A stretch of DNA of 64,000 nucleotides from a virus, in the UHGV virus genome UHGV-0060833; one strand, given 5' to 3'. Below, piece after piece: positions 787 to 62,412 of the stretch. The notes below the pieces were generated by a model. That model saw nothing but the letters and a program-made list of their open reading frames with translations. It searched no databases and was not told the DNA's origin. The translations under genes were made by a program, and so were the position numbers. The first letter of the stretch is position 1, and every line of letters begins with the position of its first letter.

Positions 787-1052
787 AATTATGTGGATAG
801 TTTTTATAAGTGGTGATAACTACCCAGGCTTTCCCGTCAGCACACATCCTATATCCCGCCAGCACACATTAGCAACCCGTCAGCACACATTTTTATCCCT
901 CCAGCACACATCGTTTTCCCTCCAGCACACATCGCGATACACTTCTAAGCCAGACGTGGCGCGGCCTGCAACGATCAGGGATCTATATGGATCTAATTGG
1001 GATCTGTATGGACCTAATTATTGGATCTACCCAGTGGATAATGTGGATAAGT
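787..1052. other. Plasmid origin oriR: DnaA boxes, five iterons, GATC heptamer cluster
   Basis: TGTGGATAG at 792-800 and tandem TGGATAA boxes ~1034-1051; five ~19-bp repeats with CAGCACACA core (831-932); five GATC sites in AT-rich spacer 973-1027. Confidence 0.8.
831..932 (+). repeat. Five direct iterons (incC-type RepA binding sites)
   Basis: Five spaced copies of ...CCGTCAGCACACAT... read directly; the 97-aa ORF 761..1054 is an artefact of translating these repeats. Confidence 0.85.
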
Positions 1053-1059
1053 GAAAAAC

Positions 1060-1082
1060 CGGCCAACATAGCCGGTTGGAAG
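1060..1082 (-). terminator. Hairpin with T-run on minus strand, downstream of the minus-strand operon ending at 1091
   Basis: AACCGGC-CAACATA-GCCGGTT stem-loop preceded by AAAAA on plus strand (U-run for minus transcript). Confidence 0.5.
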
Positions 1083-1090
1083 GAAGGGTA

Positions 1091-1483
1091 TTATTCTACG
1101 CTTTCGATAAGAAGACCATGTTCATAACATTTAAGCTCATCGCCTTCGTACAGGAATTGGTATCCAATACCACCATTTTCATGGACATTAGGGAATAACT
1201 CATAACTCACTGAAGAGCAAATCACACCAATGCAGCGATCAACGCCTTCTCGTCCTTCAGTGCTGAAAAAATCCTCTTCGGTAAGAACATGAGTACATTG
1301 CTCATCAGCATAGGTCGGAAATACATGCTCGATGCAATCCGGGTGTTTTAAACCAAGCTGATCGGCAAGCTCGAAAGCATGACGGTATTGTTCAGATCCT
1401 GGCTTGCCAACAGTGATGTGCTCAATTTTGTAGATTGAAGTCGCTTTGTTGATAGTTTGCTTTACTGTTACTTTATCAGACAT
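1091..1483 (-). CDS. Hypothetical protein (position of P1 upfA)
   Basis: 130-aa ORF, first gene of a co-oriented minus-strand block next to oriR; no recognisable motif. Confidence 0.55.
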   Translation of the reverse strand: MSDKVTVKQTINKATSIYKIEHITVGKPGSEQYRHAFELADQLGLKHPDCIEHVFPTYADEQCTHVLTEEDFFSTEGREGVDRCIGVICSSVSYELFPNVHENGGIGYQFLYEGDELKCYEHGLLIESVE

Positions 1484-1494
1484 AAAAATCCCTT

Positions 1495-1746
1495 TTAGTT
1501 ACCTCTGATAGCGCGGTTGTAATCATTAACGTTGCGATTCTTCCTGTTAATCCCCATCAGCATCGTTTCTGTATCGAGGATATACGCTGGCAGATCATCA
1601 AAATATTCACTGCTAAACTCTGGCATCCTGCACATAAATGCACTTTTGGGGGCAGGGTGGTTAACCTTTGTCGGCGTCGGCGTTAAATTCGGTGATCGAC
1701 TGCCGGAGCAACCGCTGAGTGTCAGCAGGAATGCGCTGGCGAACAT
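1495..1746 (-). CDS. Outer-membrane spanin-like lipoprotein (Rz1-like)
   Basis: Signal peptide plus lipobox LTLSGC, proline-rich mature part (PNLTPTPTKVNHPAPK); overlaps 3' end of the upstream gene in a different frame, as Rz1 does. Start chosen at internal Met; could be 1806 or 1827. Confidence 0.55.
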   Translation of the reverse strand: MFASAFLLTLSGCSGSRSPNLTPTPTKVNHPAPKSAFMCRMPEFSSEYFDDLPAYILDTETMLMGINRKNRNVNDYNRAIRGN

Positions 1747-2083
1747 TACCCGCCGCAACCAGTTGTTTCTGAACTTCAGCTTTTCGTTCCATTTGCCTGT
1801 CAGCATATTTGGCTTGTTCTGATTCATTTTTCACTTCCTGGCTGTGAAAATGTTGCTCTGCTTTGTTCATCGTCTCAATGGTCTGGTTAAGATCCATTAT
1901 TGACTTATCACGTTCCTTAACAGCCTGATCAAGACTGCCAATTTTCTCCATGGCTTGCTTTAGCTGATGACGTTCCCATGCAAACCCAGCACCAACAAGT
2001 GTGCAAATCAGAACAAGAACACCAGTAGCAGCAAGTTTCTCCTTCAAAGACAAAGCTGTTTTTAACGTAGAAAAGAATGACAT
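1661..2083 (-). CDS. Inner-membrane spanin-like protein (Rz-like)
   Basis: AGGAGG 6 nt before ATG at 2083; N-terminal TM helix (ATGVLVLICTLVGAGFAW) followed by coiled-coil-like periplasmic part; lipoprotein gene overlaps out of frame. Confidence 0.6.
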   Translation of the reverse strand: MSFFSTLKTALSLKEKLAATGVLVLICTLVGAGFAWERHQLKQAMEKIGSLDQAVKERDKSIMDLNQTIETMNKAEQHFHSQEVKNESEQAKYADRQMERKAEVQKQLVAAGNVRQRIPADTQRLLRQSITEFNADADKG

Positions 2084-2122
2084 GTCTTCCTCCTGAAGAA
2101 AAATTATCAATGAAGTCCTTTG

Positions 2123-2968
2123 TTACTGTGCCGCTTTGTTTAATTCATCAAGAACAGAATCAGGAACCAAAGCGGCAACTGCGCTGGCTGTGCTGACCTT
2201 ATTTGCTGATGCTTCCGCAAGCGCGGTACCGATAGCATGGTTATAAGCAGTTATGGCTACGTTGGCGCTTTCATTCGCTCGTTCATACTGCTGTTGTAAC
2301 GCAGTTGTGGGCGCTGTTGTCTGGTTGAAAACAACCCCAAACTGTTCAGTTGCTACTTTCAGAGATTCAATTTGCTCTTCTGTTAGTGCTGGTGGGGGAG
2401 TGGCAGTGCCGCCGCCTGAACCAGAGCCTGACGAGCTTCCTGAGCCAGTGTTAAGGGTCTGGTTAATCTCCCCCATAGCAGCGACTAAACTTGATGTATT
2501 AAGCGCGTTAACAGCGTCCTCAAGCGATTTAGTAATATTCACATCACCAATGGCAATAGAGATCGGCAGTTCTGAAACTTCTCGCTCATTAGCACGGCAG
2601 TAAACATCCCAACCAATATCGAGTTGAAGCAGCATTGACAGATCTGCATAACCAGCCAACAGGTCCGCGTGCTTAGTTGCCAGTTCTCCAATGTTCGTTA
2701 AGCCAGTTGTGGTTGTTCTGATCGTTGAAACATAGCTGGTAATAGTGTCGGGATAGACAATTGTATCCAGAATTAATCCGGTCAATTCTTCTGCAAGCAG
2801 TTTTGCTGTGTTAGCACTGTTTCGTGCCGATGTTATGGCACCAGGTGTTTTCATCCCACCGGCGGCGGCCAATTTTTTATATGCGGATAACTGGTAGTCT
2901 TTTTCCAGCATGATATCTCCTAACTTACCTGAACCAGGCCGTCTCCGGACGCTACGGTAGATCCGCAT
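2123..2968 (-). CDS. Hypothetical Ser/Thr/Gly-rich protein
   Basis: 281-aa ORF with GSGSSSGSGSGGG linker; co-oriented with neighbours. Confidence 0.5.
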   Translation of the reverse strand: MRIYRSVRRRPGSGKLGDIMLEKDYQLSAYKKLAAAGGMKTPGAITSARNSANTAKLLAEELTGLILDTIVYPDTITSYVSTIRTTTTGLTNIGELATKHADLLAGYADLSMLLQLDIGWDVYCRANEREVSELPISIAIGDVNITKSLEDAVNALNTSSLVAAMGEINQTLNTGSGSSSGSGSGGGTATPPPALTEEQIESLKVATEQFGVVFNQTTAPTTALQQQYERANESANVAITAYNHAIGTALAEASANKVSTASAVAALVPDSVLDELNKAAQ

Positions 2969-3204
2969 GAAACAGGGTCACCAACGCATACGATCCCTTT
3001 ACCATTGACGGTAAACCATGCCCTGGTTGATATAGCTTGCCCACCGTGCGTACTGTTTCCATCGGTATGCTGTGCATATTGCTTACCATCAACTAACACT
3101 TCGACTCCGTTGACTTTAAGTAGTGGTTCACTCTCTACAGGAGGCCTGGATGGGAATCCTCCGTGCCCCGAACAAATGCTGTCTTTTGTTGCAATACTTG
3201 CCAC
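2920..3204 (-). CDS. PAAR-like small protein (putative spike-tip cap)
   Basis: 94 aa; VGDPVSCG and ICSGHGG motifs resemble PAAR-repeat Zn-binding proteins. True start may be internal. Confidence 0.5.
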   Translation of the reverse strand: MASIATKDSICSGHGGFPSRPPVESEPLLKVNGVEVLVDGKQYAQHTDGNSTHGGQAISTRAWFTVNGKGIVCVGDPVSCGSTVASGDGLVQVS

Positions 3205-3284
3205 GTCATCACCAATTATTTGCTCTGGTTTTCGTTATTTTAACTTAGGTTACTTGTGGTCTACATGGTGTTAACTATTAAATA

Positions 3285-3372: not shown

Positions 3373-3657
3373 ATGCAGATGGAGCTAATAAGCCGCAAAG
3401 AGTTCGATAGCCGTGTAACCAGCGGTGAACTCGACAACTTGCAGGCTATCAAGGTGAAAGAAGGCTTTTGCCTCATTGGGAATCAGAGCGGAACAAATCG
3501 CGTTTTTATGCTTCGCCGTACGGATTTGAAGCCATTTGTCTGGAAGAACGAAATTGGTCCCAGCTCATACGCTCAAACTAGGGGGTGCCTCAACCTGGCC
3601 TTTTTCTACAAAAACGAGCTTTCTGTGGTTGATATTCAAGGGTTACAACATGTTTAA
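3373..3657 (+). CDS. Small protein upstream of the rdgC homolog (P1 uhr position)
   Basis: GGAG 7 nt before ATG at 3373; overlaps hrdC start by 8 nt. Confidence 0.45.
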
Positions 3658-4555
3658 GCACTGGAAAAACATTACTATTTTTAAACTTTCTCGTGAGGCG
3701 GATCTGACCGACTTGGAAGATAAAAAGAAAATGATCCTTTTCACGCCATGCGGTAGTCAGGATATGGCCAAGTTCGGTTTTGTATCTCCATTTGGTGATA
3801 ATTCCGAAGTTATCGCTATGCATGGAAATGGTTTTATCCTTGTTGAAGCAAAGCGCGAAACAAAAATTCTTCCCCCGCCGGTTATCCAGCGAGCTATTCA
3901 AGAAAAAATTGAAAAACTCGAGCAAGAACAAGCGCGTAAACTGAAGAAAACAGAGAAGGACTCCCTGAAAGACGAAGTTCTGCATTCTCTTCTGCCACGG
4001 GCTTTTTCAAAGTTCTCTGTTATCCAGGCGATCTACGACGGTTCAACTAAACGTATCTATATCAATGCCAGCGCGCGGCAGGCAGAGGATATGCTCGCGC
4101 TTATGCGTAAATCTCTGGGTTCTCTTCCTGTTGTTCCCCTAAGTGTTGAAAATCCCATTGAATTAACGCTGACCGACTGGGTACGTGATGGTAGTGCTCC
4201 ACAGGGATTTCAAATGGGGGATGCGGCAGAACTTAAGGCAGTGCTTGAGGATGGCGGTATTGCCCGAGTGAAAAAGCAGGACTTGGGAAGTGATGAAATA
4301 TCCACACACCTGGAAGCTGGCAAGCTCGTCACTAAGTTGGCACTCGACTGGCAGAACCGCATTAAATTTACACTGGACCATAACTTCAGCCTTACCAGCG
4401 TCAAATTTGCGGATGAATTGCTTGAGCAGAACGCTGATATTGATAGTGAAGATGTTGCGCAGCGACTGGACGCAGATTTCTTCCTGTTGACCAGTGAAAT
4501 TTCGTGCCTGGTTGATGCTCTGGTAAATGCCCTTGGTGGAGAGGCTAAGCAGTGA
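3650..4555 (+). CDS. hrdC: RdgC-like recombination-associated protein
   Basis: [14 protein letters not shown]..., [48 protein letters not shown] and later blocks match E. coli RdgC along the whole length. Confidence 0.9.
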
Positions 4556-48356: not shown

Positions 48357-51087
<2,731 letters not shown>

Positions 51088-51098
51088 CCACCAAAAAT

Positions 51099-51120
51099 AA
51101 CCCCGGCGGCTGCCGGGGTT
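51099..51120. terminator. Bidirectional terminator between pro and the lyz operon
   Basis: AACCCCGGC-GGCT-GCCGGGGTT hairpin with A/T runs on both sides. Confidence 0.6.
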
Positions 51121-51131
51121 ATCGTTAACTA

Positions 51132-51386
51132 TTATCGCTTTCGCCTGCGTGCCATATATTTGCGCACCGCGCGGCGTGGACAATCTGAAGCGGTTTCTTT
51201 CTGCTGCATCAATCTCGCAGCCATGCTCAAAAATGTCAGGCACAGCCGAAGCCCGGCATACAATAGCGGTTCCAGTGGCCACGTTTCATTAAGCACATAT
51301 ACCGCCATGAAAATCGAGTCGAAAACTATCGCTGCCAGCGATAACTTCATTGTCGAAAGTCTGCGGAGCTGCCGGAGTTTATTCAT
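51132..51386 (-). CDS. Small two-TM membrane protein downstream of lyz (holin/antiholin-like topology)
   Basis: 84 aa; two hydrophobic segments (LSLAAIVFDSIFMAVYVL, LLYAGLRLCLTFLSMAA) and strongly basic C-terminus; start overlaps lyz stop. Confidence 0.45.
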   Translation of the reverse strand: MNKLRQLRRLSTMKLSLAAIVFDSIFMAVYVLNETWPLEPLLYAGLRLCLTFLSMAARLMQQKETASDCPRRAVRKYMARRRKR

Positions 51387-51936
51387 TGACCAGTCCCGTC
51401 AGGCAAAGCTGGCGTTCTTTTTCACGGCGAATCTTTAAACCTCGCAGGGGCACGCCGTTACTGTTCACAAAATCAGGGAGATGGTTACACATATTCACCC
51501 ATTCCCCTTTCTGCGCCCACTTGTGGATGGACGTTTCGACTCGCATGCCTCGCGCTTTGCTGTAGTAGGTCCGTAAGCTATTGCATCCCATATTGAATGC
51601 CGCGCTTGTCATTGCACTAAAGGCATTATCGGGCATGTCTTTGCCCCGGAAGTGCTGATTAATACAGCGTTCAGCGATCAGGATATTCTTTTCCCAATCA
51701 GCGGCGATTTGCTGGTCGGTTTTTCGCACACCCGGCGTTACCCCGTGTGTATTACCGATCCCGTCAGTCCATACCCCCGCCGGGCACATGTATGGATCAC
51801 GTCGGCAACCTTCAGCGTTACCAATCAGCTCAAGCCCCGCCTGGTTGGTTCGCACATTGCCATTACCCATTACGATGGTAATCATCACCGCGATAGCGCA
51901 AATTGCACCGCCTCCTGCGGCTGTTTTTCCCTTCAT
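51379..51936 (-). CDS. lyz: SAR endolysin (T4-lysozyme-like muramidase with N-terminal signal-anchor-release domain)
   Basis: 185 aa; SAR segment AAGGGAICAIAVMITIVMGNG; catalytic block IGNAEGCRRDPYMCPAGVWTDGIGNTHG. Confidence 0.85.
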   Translation of the reverse strand: MKGKTAAGGGAICAIAVMITIVMGNGNVRTNQAGLELIGNAEGCRRDPYMCPAGVWTDGIGNTHGVTPGVRKTDQQIAADWEKNILIAERCINQHFRGKDMPDNAFSAMTSAAFNMGCNSLRTYYSKARGMRVETSIHKWAQKGEWVNMCNHLPDFVNSNGVPLRGLKIRREKERQLCLTGLVNE

Positions 51937-52068
51937 AAAGACCTCATAAGCGAATTTTTACGCTCCAGGACAAACACCCATTCACAGCCAATACCGACTG
52001 ACTCGATCCCTTTAGAAGGCACAGGATAATGCAAATCACTTGTTAGCTACGTTTCAAAGATATACATT

Positions 52069-60704: not shown

Positions 60705-61316
60705 TTAATTTCCTGCTTTCAGTTGCTTAAGACGACGTTTGAGTTCGCCATTCCGTGCCTTTTCGTTATTGAGTCGGCCCGTCTCCTTATCCAGCTTCGC
60801 CCGCAAATCAGTGATCTGCTGTTGATTGAAAGACACCGAATTCTGCGCGGACTTATAAGCGGCAACCACCTGAGCATTCCGCTGTTTTGCTTCTTGCAGG
60901 CGCTGAAAGTTGGATTTAACTGCCGGTTTCTTGTCTACCGGATTGGCAACACGCTTCGCTTTGGCGATCAGTGATTTCTGGAATTTTGCGGAGTTTTTGC
61001 GGGCCGCCTGTCCCATGACGGTACCAAGCGTCTTGATATCCGGCGACTGAGCGTTAGGAATAGCTTTTCCATTCAGTTTCACAGACGATATATCGCCAGT
61101 ATCGTTTACCTGTATGGCAAGAATTTGTCCGTCGTTAAGAACCAGCTTTGCGGTTTTAACTTTAACGCCATCTTTCGTTGTTGCGCGGTTGCTGGAGTCA
61201 ACCTCAATTACCGTAACACCGGTTTTATTGATCGCCGCGATAAGGGATTTCAGCCCCTTTTCATTAACCTGGTCAAAATCGACCGTTGCATACTTATTTT
61301 TCGTCATCTGACACAT
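60705..61316 (-). CDS. hdf: Homolog of DarA fragment
   Basis: 203 aa; ARKNSAKFQKSLIAKAKR resembles DarA AEKNSAKFQRAQKKKKAL; directly upstream of darA. Confidence 0.6.
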   Translation of the reverse strand: MCQMTKNKYATVDFDQVNEKGLKSLIAAINKTGVTVIEVDSSNRATTKDGVKVKTAKLVLNDGQILAIQVNDTGDISSVKLNGKAIPNAQSPDIKTLGTVMGQAARKNSAKFQKSLIAKAKRVANPVDKKPAVKSNFQRLQEAKQRNAQVVAAYKSAQNSVSFNQQQITDLRAKLDKETGRLNNEKARNGELKRRLKQLKAGN

Positions 61317-61737
61317 CCTGTGCGAGATTTATTACGTAACTTCTGCGGATTTGCTGAGTAACAGGGAAAATCCGATACAACGGGTTAATGAACGAGTCGC
61401 CATGCGTAACCATGATGTTGAAATGCCACAGTCGCTCTCCTTTACCCATATATTCAGTGGGTATGTACAACCATTCACTGTTTTCGCCCTGTTCAGCCGA
61501 CGTCAGACAACGTTGTTCACCTTCAATCACTGTCGTCGGCTTCTGAACATCGCGGATCCAATATCTGACCGTTGCGCCGCGCAAAAACGGGAATTTAGAC
61601 CGGTACTTGAACGGCACCCGGATGAAACCCGGTTTAATTTCCACATCACCAAGTTCTAAATGCGTGATGTCCTTGCGTTTTAGCAAATAGCGATCGGCTA
61701 AGGCTAACGCAAGAACGCATACACCCCAGCCAATCAT
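61294..61737 (-). CDS. lydB: Putative antiholin (P1 lydB position)
   Basis: 147-aa ORF overlapping the holin-like gene stop by 4 nt. Confidence 0.55.
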   Translation of the reverse strand: MIGWGVCVLALALADRYLLKRKDITHLELGDVEIKPGFIRVPFKYRSKFPFLRGATVRYWIRDVQKPTTVIEGEQRCLTSAEQGENSEWLYIPTEYMGKGERLWHFNIMVTHGDSFINPLYRIFPVTQQIRRSYVINLAQDVSDDEK

Positions 61738-62063
61738 TTCCCGCCTCCCTTTTTCACCAAACTTGTAAGAACATTCAGAATGCTATCGATATTCACTCGT
61801 TTCATCCCTGAAATCACCTCATGACCGTTATTGCTGGCTATCGTTACCATTAAGTACGTAATTGATAACTCCCAGCCCTCGTGTTGCCCCAATAGGTACG
61901 CCACCGCGCCAGCTGTCACTGCAACAAAGATCTCCGTAACCAATCCCAACAAATTGCCAGACTGGCGACCGTCTCGGACATCCATCAGGAACGTGCCTAT
62001 CCCACCAATTACTGAAAGCAGGAGCGCAATAGCAACTGGAGCTAATTCCTGTGTGTCAAGCAC
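61734..62063 (-). CDS. lydA: Holin-like membrane protein
   Basis: 109 aa; hydrophobic segments VAIALLLSVIGGIGTFLM and IFVAVTAGAVAYLLG; first gene of the operon. Confidence 0.6.
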   Translation of the reverse strand: MLDTQELAPVAIALLLSVIGGIGTFLMDVRDGRQSGNLLGLVTEIFVAVTAGAVAYLLGQHEGWELSITYLMVTIASNNGHEVISGMKRVNIDSILNVLTSLVKKGGGK

Positions 62064-62130
62064 AAGTTCCCTCCTACGTTGTCAGGAGGTAATGGTATGC
62101 AAAGTAACTTCTCAACCGGTCATTTGTTGC

Positions 62131-62412
62131 TTAAGAGGCATTTCTATTGAGGTACGAATCGATAATCCTTTGTAACTTTTCAAGAATGAGCCTGTTATTG
62201 ATGCTGCAAATAATAGTCACGCAATTCTGAAGACTTTCATCCATACCCTTATATTCCGCGAAATACATGCCTATAAAGCCTGCAAGTACGGCAGCAATAC
62301 ACTCGGCCATCAATTGCCTGCATGACGCTTCGTAACGTTTTTCACGAACCCCATTCAGAAACGAATGCACCCCGCCAAGGATGGAGAGGAGCATTATTGT
62401 GAAATCACACAT
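62131..62412 (-). CDS. Small holin-like membrane protein
   Basis: 93 aa; hydrophobic segments TIMLLSILGGVHSF and AAVLAGFIGMYF. Confidence 0.45.
   Translation of the reverse strand: MCDFTIMLLSILGGVHSFLNGVREKRYEASCRQLMAECIAAVLAGFIGMYFAEYKGMDESLQNCVTIICSINNRLILEKLQRIIDSYLNRNAS

Follow-up and report, generated by a model that had tools for sequence, protein, structure and literature searches.

The overlapping ppfA and mlp genes of a P1-like phage-plasmid as a predicted two-component spanin pair

Two overlapping genes of a P1-like phage-plasmid, ppfA and mlp, are predicted to encode a two-component spanin of the overlapped class, a reading to which we assign a probability of roughly 85%. Both genes lie on the minus strand near one end of a 64,000-nt stretch of viral DNA (UHGV-0060833), called the window hereafter. 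The assignment draws on the anatomy of the two genes, on the conservation of both reading frames among relatives, on purifying selection acting on mlp and on profile-level similarity to spanins. A first-pass annotation had described this locus as having spanin architecture, and our analysis agrees with that description: the pair combines a predicted type II inner-membrane protein of helical structure with a predicted lipoprotein of the outer membrane read from the +1 frame, and both products match spanin PHROGs. The pair, its architectural class, the lipobox call and the position apart from other lysis genes have all been published for P1, and our result is a rediscovery.

The source of the window is a P1-like phage-plasmid. 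P1, P7, SJ46, RCS47 and other relatives share 95-99% nucleotide identity with its first 3.3 kb, and the far end of the window likewise matches P1 and its relatives. A comparison with ppfA/mlp of P1, which had been proposed at the outset, identified 1661..2083 and 1495..1827 as these same two genes, with boundaries identical to those of NC_005856 and 95-98% nucleotide identity. The interval 1495..2083 that had first drawn attention runs exactly from the stop codon of mlp to the start codon of ppfA. PpfA is 97% identical to its P1 counterpart and Mlp differs at about four residues. The relation between the two frames, the Shine-Dalgarno sequences and the lipobox are shared as well, as is the site between upfA and upfB near oriR, unlinked to lyz and lydA/B. 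The differences between the two proteins and those of P1 are strain-level substitutions (e.g., PpfA T28 for A28, and P46 for A46 and R108 for S108 in Mlp). In the P1 record NC_005856, repA, oriR, upfA, mlp, ppfA, upfB and upfC are found on one strand, and uhr, hrdC and dmt on the other.

Much of this anatomy has been catalogued for P1. SpaninDB (Kongari 2018, PMC6139136) lists gp064/gp063 of P1 as an 'ovl' two-component spanin, assigns the pair to a 'P1' family of its own and holds no further spanin candidate for this phage. In that entry, gp064 is the i-spanin, with an N-terminal part of 36 residues that includes the transmembrane domain, a periplasmic domain of 104 residues and no periplasmic cysteine ('one in TMD'); the Shine-Dalgarno sequence given for ppfA is the same as in the window. 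The o-spanin, gp063, is listed with a signal of 39 residues and a mature form of 71 residues containing one cysteine, and the curators remarked on a 'Too long signal sequence', a LipoP cleavage at residue 39 and the lack of a Prosite match (PMC6139136). Bednarek 2022 (PMC9025707) also treats ppfA/mlp as the predicted spanins of P1, located in yet another operon unlinked to the other lysis genes, and credits Summer 2007, as cited there, with the first proposal. The wording of Bednarek 2022 makes ppfA the o-spanin and mlp the i-spanin; the sequence features say the reverse. In RefSeq, P1 mlp is named 'Rz-like spanin', and the names Rz/Rz1 are used in several GenBank records of P1-like elements.

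The larger gene, ppfA (1661..2083, minus strand), encodes a predicted i-spanin of 140 aa, as judged from the open reading frame, the P1 boundaries, the PHROG match, the AF2 model and SpaninDB. Its ATG at 2083 is preceded by a Shine-Dalgarno sequence read directly from the DNA (AGGAGG, 2089..2094, minus strand, 5 nt upstream). The N-terminal membrane anchor that had been attributed to this product was recovered as one predicted segment: hydropathy peaks at residues 17-35 (LAATGVLVLICTLVGAGFA; codons at 1979..2035, minus strand), with a mean of 2.2 in a 19-residue Kyte-Doolittle window, and this is the sole hydrophobic segment of the protein and falls within a helix of the AF2 model. The predicted topology is thus type II with a single N-terminal transmembrane domain, and the only cysteine of PpfA (C27) sits inside this domain. 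In the AF2 model, computed from an alignment of 13 sequences (mean pLDDT 72), residues 13-110 form one uninterrupted helix and residues 120-137 another, separated by a break at 111-119 (AGNVRQRIP). A crude heptad test found that the a/d positions of residues 36-77 are 0.75-0.875 hydrophobic in one register, and less so beyond, while the 3.5-residue periodicity of the protein exceeds that of 95% of shuffled sequences. The earlier description of a coiled-coil periplasmic domain therefore holds for the long helices and for the heptads at 36-77, but the heptad pattern fades past residue 77. Because of these helices and this register, a membrane anchor followed by a helical, partly coiled-coil domain is a fair description of PpfA, and the two predicted helical segments joined by a linker are the arrangement expected in the periplasmic part of an i-spanin.

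The smaller gene, mlp (1495..1827, minus strand), encodes a predicted o-spanin in the form of a 110-aa lipoprotein precursor; the assignment combines the open reading frame, the P1 boundaries, PHROG matches, conservation and dN/dS. A Shine-Dalgarno-like AGGAAG (1834..1839, minus strand), read from the sequence, lies 6 nt upstream of the ATG at 1827 and falls within ppfA codons Q82-E83-V84. The first-pass annotation had reported a lipobox LSGC in the overlapping frame, and it is indeed present: a hydrophobic core (FASAFLLTL) is followed by L37-S38-G39-C40 (CTC AGC GGT TGC; 1708..1719, minus strand), Cys40 being the predicted lipidated residue. This call is backed by the sequence itself, by the invariance of the cysteine across clades and by the LipoP prediction published for P1 Mlp. 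Ser-Gly occupies positions +2/+3, and the inner-membrane retention signal, Asp at +2, is absent, such that Mlp carries both a predicted lipoprotein signal and a predicted outer-membrane sorting signal, as expected of an o-spanin. The mature protein would comprise 71 aa, with a second cysteine (Cys66) in the motif FMCRMPEF. Its description as proline-rich applies to the mature N-terminal part, where 5 of the first 25 residues are proline, but not to the mature protein as a whole (7/71). The AF2 model of Mlp has a pLDDT of 54, at which only a hint of a C-terminal helix is usable. Gene callers mostly overlook mlp or call just a C-terminal fragment of 46-65 aa that lacks the lipobox.

One feature of Mlp counts against the spanin reading: the annotated signal peptide, at 39 residues, is unusually long, and with its cysteine at position 40 from the annotated start the protein fails the position rule of PROSITE PS51257. 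This rule is satisfied from either of two alternative starts, Met8 or TTG24. The excess length appears not to be an annotation artefact of P1, since a Shine-Dalgarno sequence (AGGAAG, AGGAGG or AAGAGG) followed by ATG is found at the equivalent position in all three clades. The basic N-region of about 24 residues is conserved in length among these clades and variable in sequence. The divergent clades present an ATG exactly at the TTG (Leu24) position of P1, and a start at residue 24 would yield a textbook signal peptide of 16 residues that passes the PROSITE rule. For this reason, it is possible that mlp has two initiation sites leading to one identical mature protein.

The two genes share 167 nt (1661..1827, minus strand), which encode residues 86-140 and the stop codon of PpfA together with residues 1-56 of Mlp, that is, the signal peptide, the lipobox and the first 16 mature residues. 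The claim of an out-of-frame overlapping gene was borne out, with mlp in the +1 frame of ppfA. The word 'embedded' does not suit the pair: since mlp continues 166 nt beyond the ppfA stop, the architecture is overlapped, as SpaninDB also codes it ('ovl'). Such a frame could in principle arise by chance, and an alternative reading holds that only ppfA is a real gene and that mlp is a fortuitously open frame with a fortuitous lipobox. We recoded PpfA synonymously and found the +1 frame open in 49% of the recodings; with about half of them keeping the frame open, an open frame is weak evidence by itself. That mlp is usually missed or fragmentary in gene calls and that the first ~24 residues of Mlp are poorly conserved between clades would also fit a chance frame. 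In contrast, a lipobox preceded by a hydrophobic core was found in just 0.4% of the recodings, and the Shine-Dalgarno sequence and ATG of mlp are conserved.

The decisive evidence for mlp is conservation and purifying selection. We collected 94 related loci, which together with the window gave 68 distinct sequences of the segment running from ppfA to the downstream region. Conservation of the overlapping frame had been set beforehand as the test on which the reading could fail. A full-length +1 open reading frame with the lipobox cysteine was found in 67 of these 68 sequences, even where PpfA identity falls to 48%. In the remaining one (L082), the locus is disrupted and the open reading frames of both ppfA and mlp are truncated; its mlp fragment retains the lipobox. 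The divergent relatives are elements from Salmonella, Cronobacter and Klebsiella whose PpfA is 48-61% identical and whose gene order is the same. Across clades the lipobox reads LSGC, LSAC, LNGC, LNAC or LVAC, always with the cysteine, and the hydrophobic core, the cysteine of FMCRMPEF and the C-terminal 45 residues of Mlp are likewise kept. The 53 mlp codons located 3' of the ppfA stop present dN/dS values of 0.07-0.14 wherever dS could be computed, whereas pN/pS exceeds 1 when the same mlp-only DNA is read in the other two frames. This part of mlp is under strong purifying selection. Frame conservation across relatives and selection on the mlp frame together refute the reading in which ppfA alone is real, and we give that reading practically no credence.

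The overlap leaves its mark on ppfA as well. Third-position divergence between clades drops from ~0.54 in ppfA to ~0.32 inside the overlap, and PpfA is far more conserved from residue 82 onward, with Q82, E83 and K85 invariant. In some clades, a synonymous CAG-to-CAA change in a Gln codon of ppfA makes the Mlp lipobox LNGC or LNAC instead of LSGC. About 6% of the database sequences are PpfA-Mlp fusions of 193-195 aa, in which a shift from the ppfA frame to the mlp frame has occurred somewhere in the overlap. The commonest of these is an A5-to-A4 deletion in GTGAAAAATG, at the mlp start, found in three samples of one sequencing project. These fusion variants should be PpfA-null alleles.

More distant homologues located in canonical lysis cassettes were sought. 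A tblastn search of PpfA against 50,697 phage records returned nothing beyond P1-like phages and Cronobacter phage JK004. The PpfA relatives found in a large protein database come from P1-like elements only, and a scan of genome contigs added 3 further close relatives.

Similarity to known spanins is nonetheless detectable at the level of profiles. The PHROG search placed PpfA in phrog_89 ('Rz-like spanin', 5.9e-25) and Mlp in phrog_30284 (1e-75) and phrog_456 (about 3e-5), both also labelled as Rz-like spanin; these labels are annotations. Searches of both proteins against Pfam yielded no spanin family, Rz/Rz1 included, at E<=1. In NCBIfam, the best match of PpfA was LysB of P2 (TIGR03495; E 0.0024, 18.2 bits against a cut-off of 92.75) and that of Mlp was LysC/Rz1 of P2 (NF038368; E 0.099, 12.8 bits against a cut-off of 27). 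Both matches are sub-threshold; LysB and LysC are partners in a single known spanin pair of the overlapped class. The ppfA-mlp pair thus presents all the predicted structural hallmarks of a two-component spanin and falls outside the curated lambda and P2 sequence families.

Among characterized systems, P2 lysB/lysC belongs to the same class: the o-spanin gene starts in the +1 frame within the 3' part of the i-spanin gene and passes its stop. The NCBIfam scores, which are far under both cut-offs, make ppfA/mlp a different family by NCBI criteria. P2 lysB/lysC belong to a lysis cassette, in which they come after the genes for holin and endolysin, whereas ppfA/mlp lie at least about 49 kb from such genes.

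The predicted topology of PpfA is the same as that of lambda Rz, a type II protein of the inner membrane whose periplasmic part has two helical segments and a linker (PMC6139136). Mlp resembles Rz1 in being a predicted outer-membrane lipoprotein encoded in the +1 frame, with a proline-rich mature N-terminus and a cysteine for homodimerisation. In contrast to mlp, which extends past ppfA, Rz1 is wholly embedded in Rz, and Rz has two periplasmic cysteines whereas PpfA has none. The mature Rz1 protein is ~40 aa long. The 71-aa mature Mlp differs from it in having a conserved C-terminal domain, weakly predicted to be helical. The pair of lambda is also distinguished by its place in a lysis cassette and by the Pfam Rz/Rz1 families, neither of which applies to ppfA/mlp.

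The T4 pair PseT.3/PseT.2 is unlinked to holin and endolysin genes as well, and its i-spanin also lacks periplasmic cysteines (PMC6139136). Like Mlp, the o-spanin of T4 exceeds Rz1 in size, and a helix is predicted at its C-terminus (PMC6139136). The two T4 genes do not overlap, however, and two cysteines are essential in the T4 o-spanin, whereas mature Mlp contains a single cysteine apart from the lipidated one. We detected no sequence similarity between PseT.3/PseT.2 and PpfA/Mlp. Of 528 spanin systems, 507 have one or more periplasmic cysteines in at least one of the subunits (PMC6139136); here such a cysteine is provided by Cys66 of Mlp, in all clades, PpfA having no cysteine outside its transmembrane domain.

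The first-pass annotation had placed the pair beside oriR, which is correct insofar as the locus is replicon-proximal, but upfA (1091..1483) and a terminator-like hairpin intervene between the pair and oriR. This hairpin, followed by a T-run (1057..1077, minus strand), lies just 3' of upfA and was detected by a consensus scan only; it likely marks the end of a leftward upfC-upfB-ppfA-mlp-upfA unit. The first gene of this apparent operon, upfC, encodes a PAAR-like homologue of tail-spike tips.

The remaining lysis genes lie toward the other end of the window. The endolysin gene lyz (51379..51936, minus strand; phrog_7, 7e-69) is followed by the holin-like lydD (51132..51386, minus strand; phrog_21930 holin, 2e-58), whose end is overlapped by an open reading frame of the size of lydE (51067..51282, minus strand), assigned from position and size only. 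The other locus contains lydA (61734..62063, minus strand; phrog_1527 holin, 4e-49), lydB (61294..61737, minus strand; phrog_1898 'lysis determining protein', 9e-85) and an open reading frame of the size of lydC (62131..62412, minus strand), again recognized by position and size only. The proposal that lysis functions are spread over three loci was right, with ppfA/mlp, lyz/lydD at ~51 kb and lydA/lydB at ~61-62 kb, and this is the arrangement known for P1, whose annotation of the homologous stretches also supports the gene assignments at the last two loci. At the P1 plp/upl position (~7.1-8.9 kb), we searched for a second lipoprotein or spanin-like pair that might account for ppfA and mlp being non-essential, and found no open reading frame with a lipobox. 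T4 is an earlier example of a phage whose spanin genes stand apart from those for holin and endolysin (PMC6139136).

In a canonical lysis cassette, the spanin genes would adjoin the holin and endolysin genes under a common late promoter; neither feature was found for ppfA/mlp. The late promoters LPlyz and LPdar are present as exact matches ahead of the lyz/lydD locus (52023..52041) and the lydA/lydB locus (62092..62110), respectively. For the ppfA operon, the P1 record gives predicted sigma-70 promoters only and no Lpa-dependent late promoter. We built an Lpa-promoter pattern from LPlyz and LPdar (AAGTNAYTT-N4-TANNNT), which, with up to one mismatch, gave 9 matches against 2 expected and recovered both known promoters exactly. 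One of the matches, at 3237..3255 on the minus strand, has a single mismatch and lies 33 nt 5' of upfC, where the window is one base nearer the Lpa-box consensus than P1. We rejected this candidate late promoter because it is not conserved: its third base, the diagnostic one, varies freely in P1-like relatives (A, C, G or T), the site has two mismatches in P1, and none was found in the divergent clades. The main text of the P1 transcriptome papers does not mention ppfA and mlp.

This setting invites another reading, in which PpfA and Mlp form an envelope complex of the prophage state (serving, e.g., exclusion, envelope modification or the fitness of the plasmid host) and resemble spanins in topology only. 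The pair is indeed located between the plasmid replicon (repA/oriR) and early or immunity-controlled genes, the promoters predicted in P1 are those of sigma-70 only, and frameshift variants that destroy PpfA occur naturally in sequenced samples. In addition, a genome-wide CRISPRi study obtained plating efficiencies of 0.24/0.19 for P1 mlp and 1.3/1.2 for P1 ppfA and scored both genes as non-essential, whereas lambda Rz was scored as essential in the same assay. The CRISPRi result may reflect incomplete knock-down. Moreover, laboratory cultures that are shaken can lyse without spanins (Bednarek 2022, PMC9025707), and for this reason the absence of a knock-down phenotype is not decisive. The matches of both proteins to spanin profiles, with the two halves of the P2 LysB/LysC pair as the weak NCBIfam matches, argue against an envelope complex of another kind, and so does the +1 overlapped arrangement, a specific hallmark of spanins (PMC6139136). 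The PAAR-like product of the first gene further suggests a lytic-cycle transcription unit, and SpaninDB lists no other candidate for P1. We consider an envelope complex that is spanin-like in topology only to be quite improbable.

A related possibility is that the pair does not, or does not only, serve late lysis, being transcribed independently of Lpa, from promoters next to the replicon, to form a periplasm-spanning envelope complex in the prophage or early state. We regard this as unlikely too. If true, it would account for three observations: no late promoter is conserved, knock-down gave no phenotype, and the signal peptide of Mlp carries a conserved N-terminal extension that is basic and unusually long. 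This extension could permit two initiation sites or delayed export.

Under the preferred reading of ppfA-mlp as a lysis spanin pair, a mechanism can be modelled on the descriptions of lambda and T4 (PMC6139136); topology, lipidation, complex formation and membrane fusion are all proposed here by analogy with Rz/Rz1 and PseT.3/PseT.2. PpfA would be anchored in the inner membrane through one N-terminal helix, N-in and C-out, with a helical, partly coiled-coil domain of ~105 residues reaching into the periplasm. Mlp would be translated in the +1 frame from a ribosome-binding site of its own within ppfA and then exported, with lipidation at Cys40 and cleavage by signal peptidase II. As its +2 residue is Ser and not Asp, its destination would be the inner leaflet of the outer membrane. 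The two proteins would interact by their C-terminal regions across the peptidoglycan mesh, yielding a complex that spans the periplasm; Cys66 of Mlp would be available for a homodimer disulfide, PpfA having no periplasmic cysteine to offer. The Lyz endolysin, released under the control of LydA/LydB/LydD, would degrade the wall first, and the PpfA-Mlp complexes thus freed would collapse, fuse the inner and outer membranes and complete lysis.

As the literature on P1 already covers the pair, its architectural class, the lipobox and the separation from other lysis genes, the value of these results as a discovery is small. Their value is practical. P1 is a workhorse phage with predicted spanins, for whose operon no Lpa promoter is known and which gave no knock-down phenotype. 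Annotators of P1-like elements should beware of automatic calls in which Mlp appears as a C-terminal fragment without its lipobox. Finally, the comparative data provide a clean example of dual-coding constraint, in which a Gln codon of ppfA and the lipobox of Mlp are written in the same nucleotides.

The Introduction of Bednarek 2022 (PMC9025707) terms ppfA an o-spanin and mlp an i-spanin. Judging from the transmembrane domain of PpfA, the lipobox of Mlp and the entries of SpaninDB (Kongari 2018), these two labels are swapped. Automatic annotations of mlp often consist of just a 46-65-aa C-terminal fragment that starts from an internal Met, as at 957..1097 of the related locus L002 (MH422554) and in the gene calls of L091 and L094, two further loci of our comparison set. 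These fragments carry the labels Rz1 or "lipoprotein" (also phrog_15803); despite such names, the called product has neither the signal peptide nor the lipobox. In L092 and L093, mlp is wholly uncalled. The comparison set also includes L003 (JAFAFU010000017.1), a 5.9-kb contig labeled "MAG: Bacillota bacterium" whose ppfA is 98% identical to that of the window. The contig is almost certainly P1-like and enterobacterial, mis-binned into a Firmicutes metagenome-assembled genome.

We examined the signal-peptide region of Mlp (window 1746..1827, minus strand) across loci L086-L094. If translation begins at the annotated ATG, the N-region of the signal peptide is basic and about 24 residues long; this length, but not the sequence, is conserved across clades. 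At the position of the TTG codon of P1 (Leu24, window 1758), the divergent clades, which are elements from Salmonella, Cronobacter and Klebsiella, have an additional ATG. Translation starting at this codon would yield a canonical lipoprotein signal of 16 residues.

Public assemblies contain proteins of 193-195 aa in which the N-terminus of PpfA is fused to Mlp (loci L096-L098; database proteins P0003, P0010, P0016, P0019, P0027, P0039, P0040 and P0044). The fusions originate from shifts from the ppfA frame to the mlp frame at varying positions of the overlap. The most frequent junction is a 1-base deletion within the A5 run of GTGAAAAATG at the mlp start (window 1827..1831, minus strand), which joins PpfA residues 1-85 to the entire Mlp, and this deletion was found in three samples with adjacent ERR accession numbers. 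The fusions probably represent either PpfA-null alleles or homopolymer errors, not programmed frameshifting.

The apparent operon of ppfA and mlp also holds the PAAR-like gene upfC (window 2920..3204, minus strand) and upfB (2123..2911, minus strand). UpfC matches phrog_281 (2e-30). It also matches the NCBIfam T6SS PAAR domain, at 4.5e-9 and below the cut-off of that model, and is presumably the tail-spike tip. UpfB is 262-281 aa long and contains a Gly/Ser-rich linker. The divergent elements from Salmonella, Cronobacter and Klebsiella retain the order upfC-upfB-spanin genes. An Lpa late-promoter-like site, AAGTAACCTAAGTTAAAAT (window 3237..3255, minus strand), precedes the start of upfC (3204) by 33 nt and matches the P1 pattern with one mismatch; no late promoter is annotated at this position in the P1 record. 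Among P1-like relatives, the -10-like TAAAAT of the site is kept and the third base of its 9-bp box varies between A, C, G and T. The divergent clades present no match to the late-promoter pattern at the position upstream of upfC. We consider it doubtful that this site functions as a promoter.

Some of the divergent P1-like elements carry a gene of the Phage_gp49_66 family (PF13876) directly after mlp. In L094 this gene (3600..3953) occupies the position of upfA, and in L091 it (3600..3959) is followed by a upfA-sized gene encoding 129 aa. One database protein, P0079, combines the N-terminus of Mlp with a Gp49-family C-terminus, and this fusion suggests the presence of a recombination junction inside mlp.
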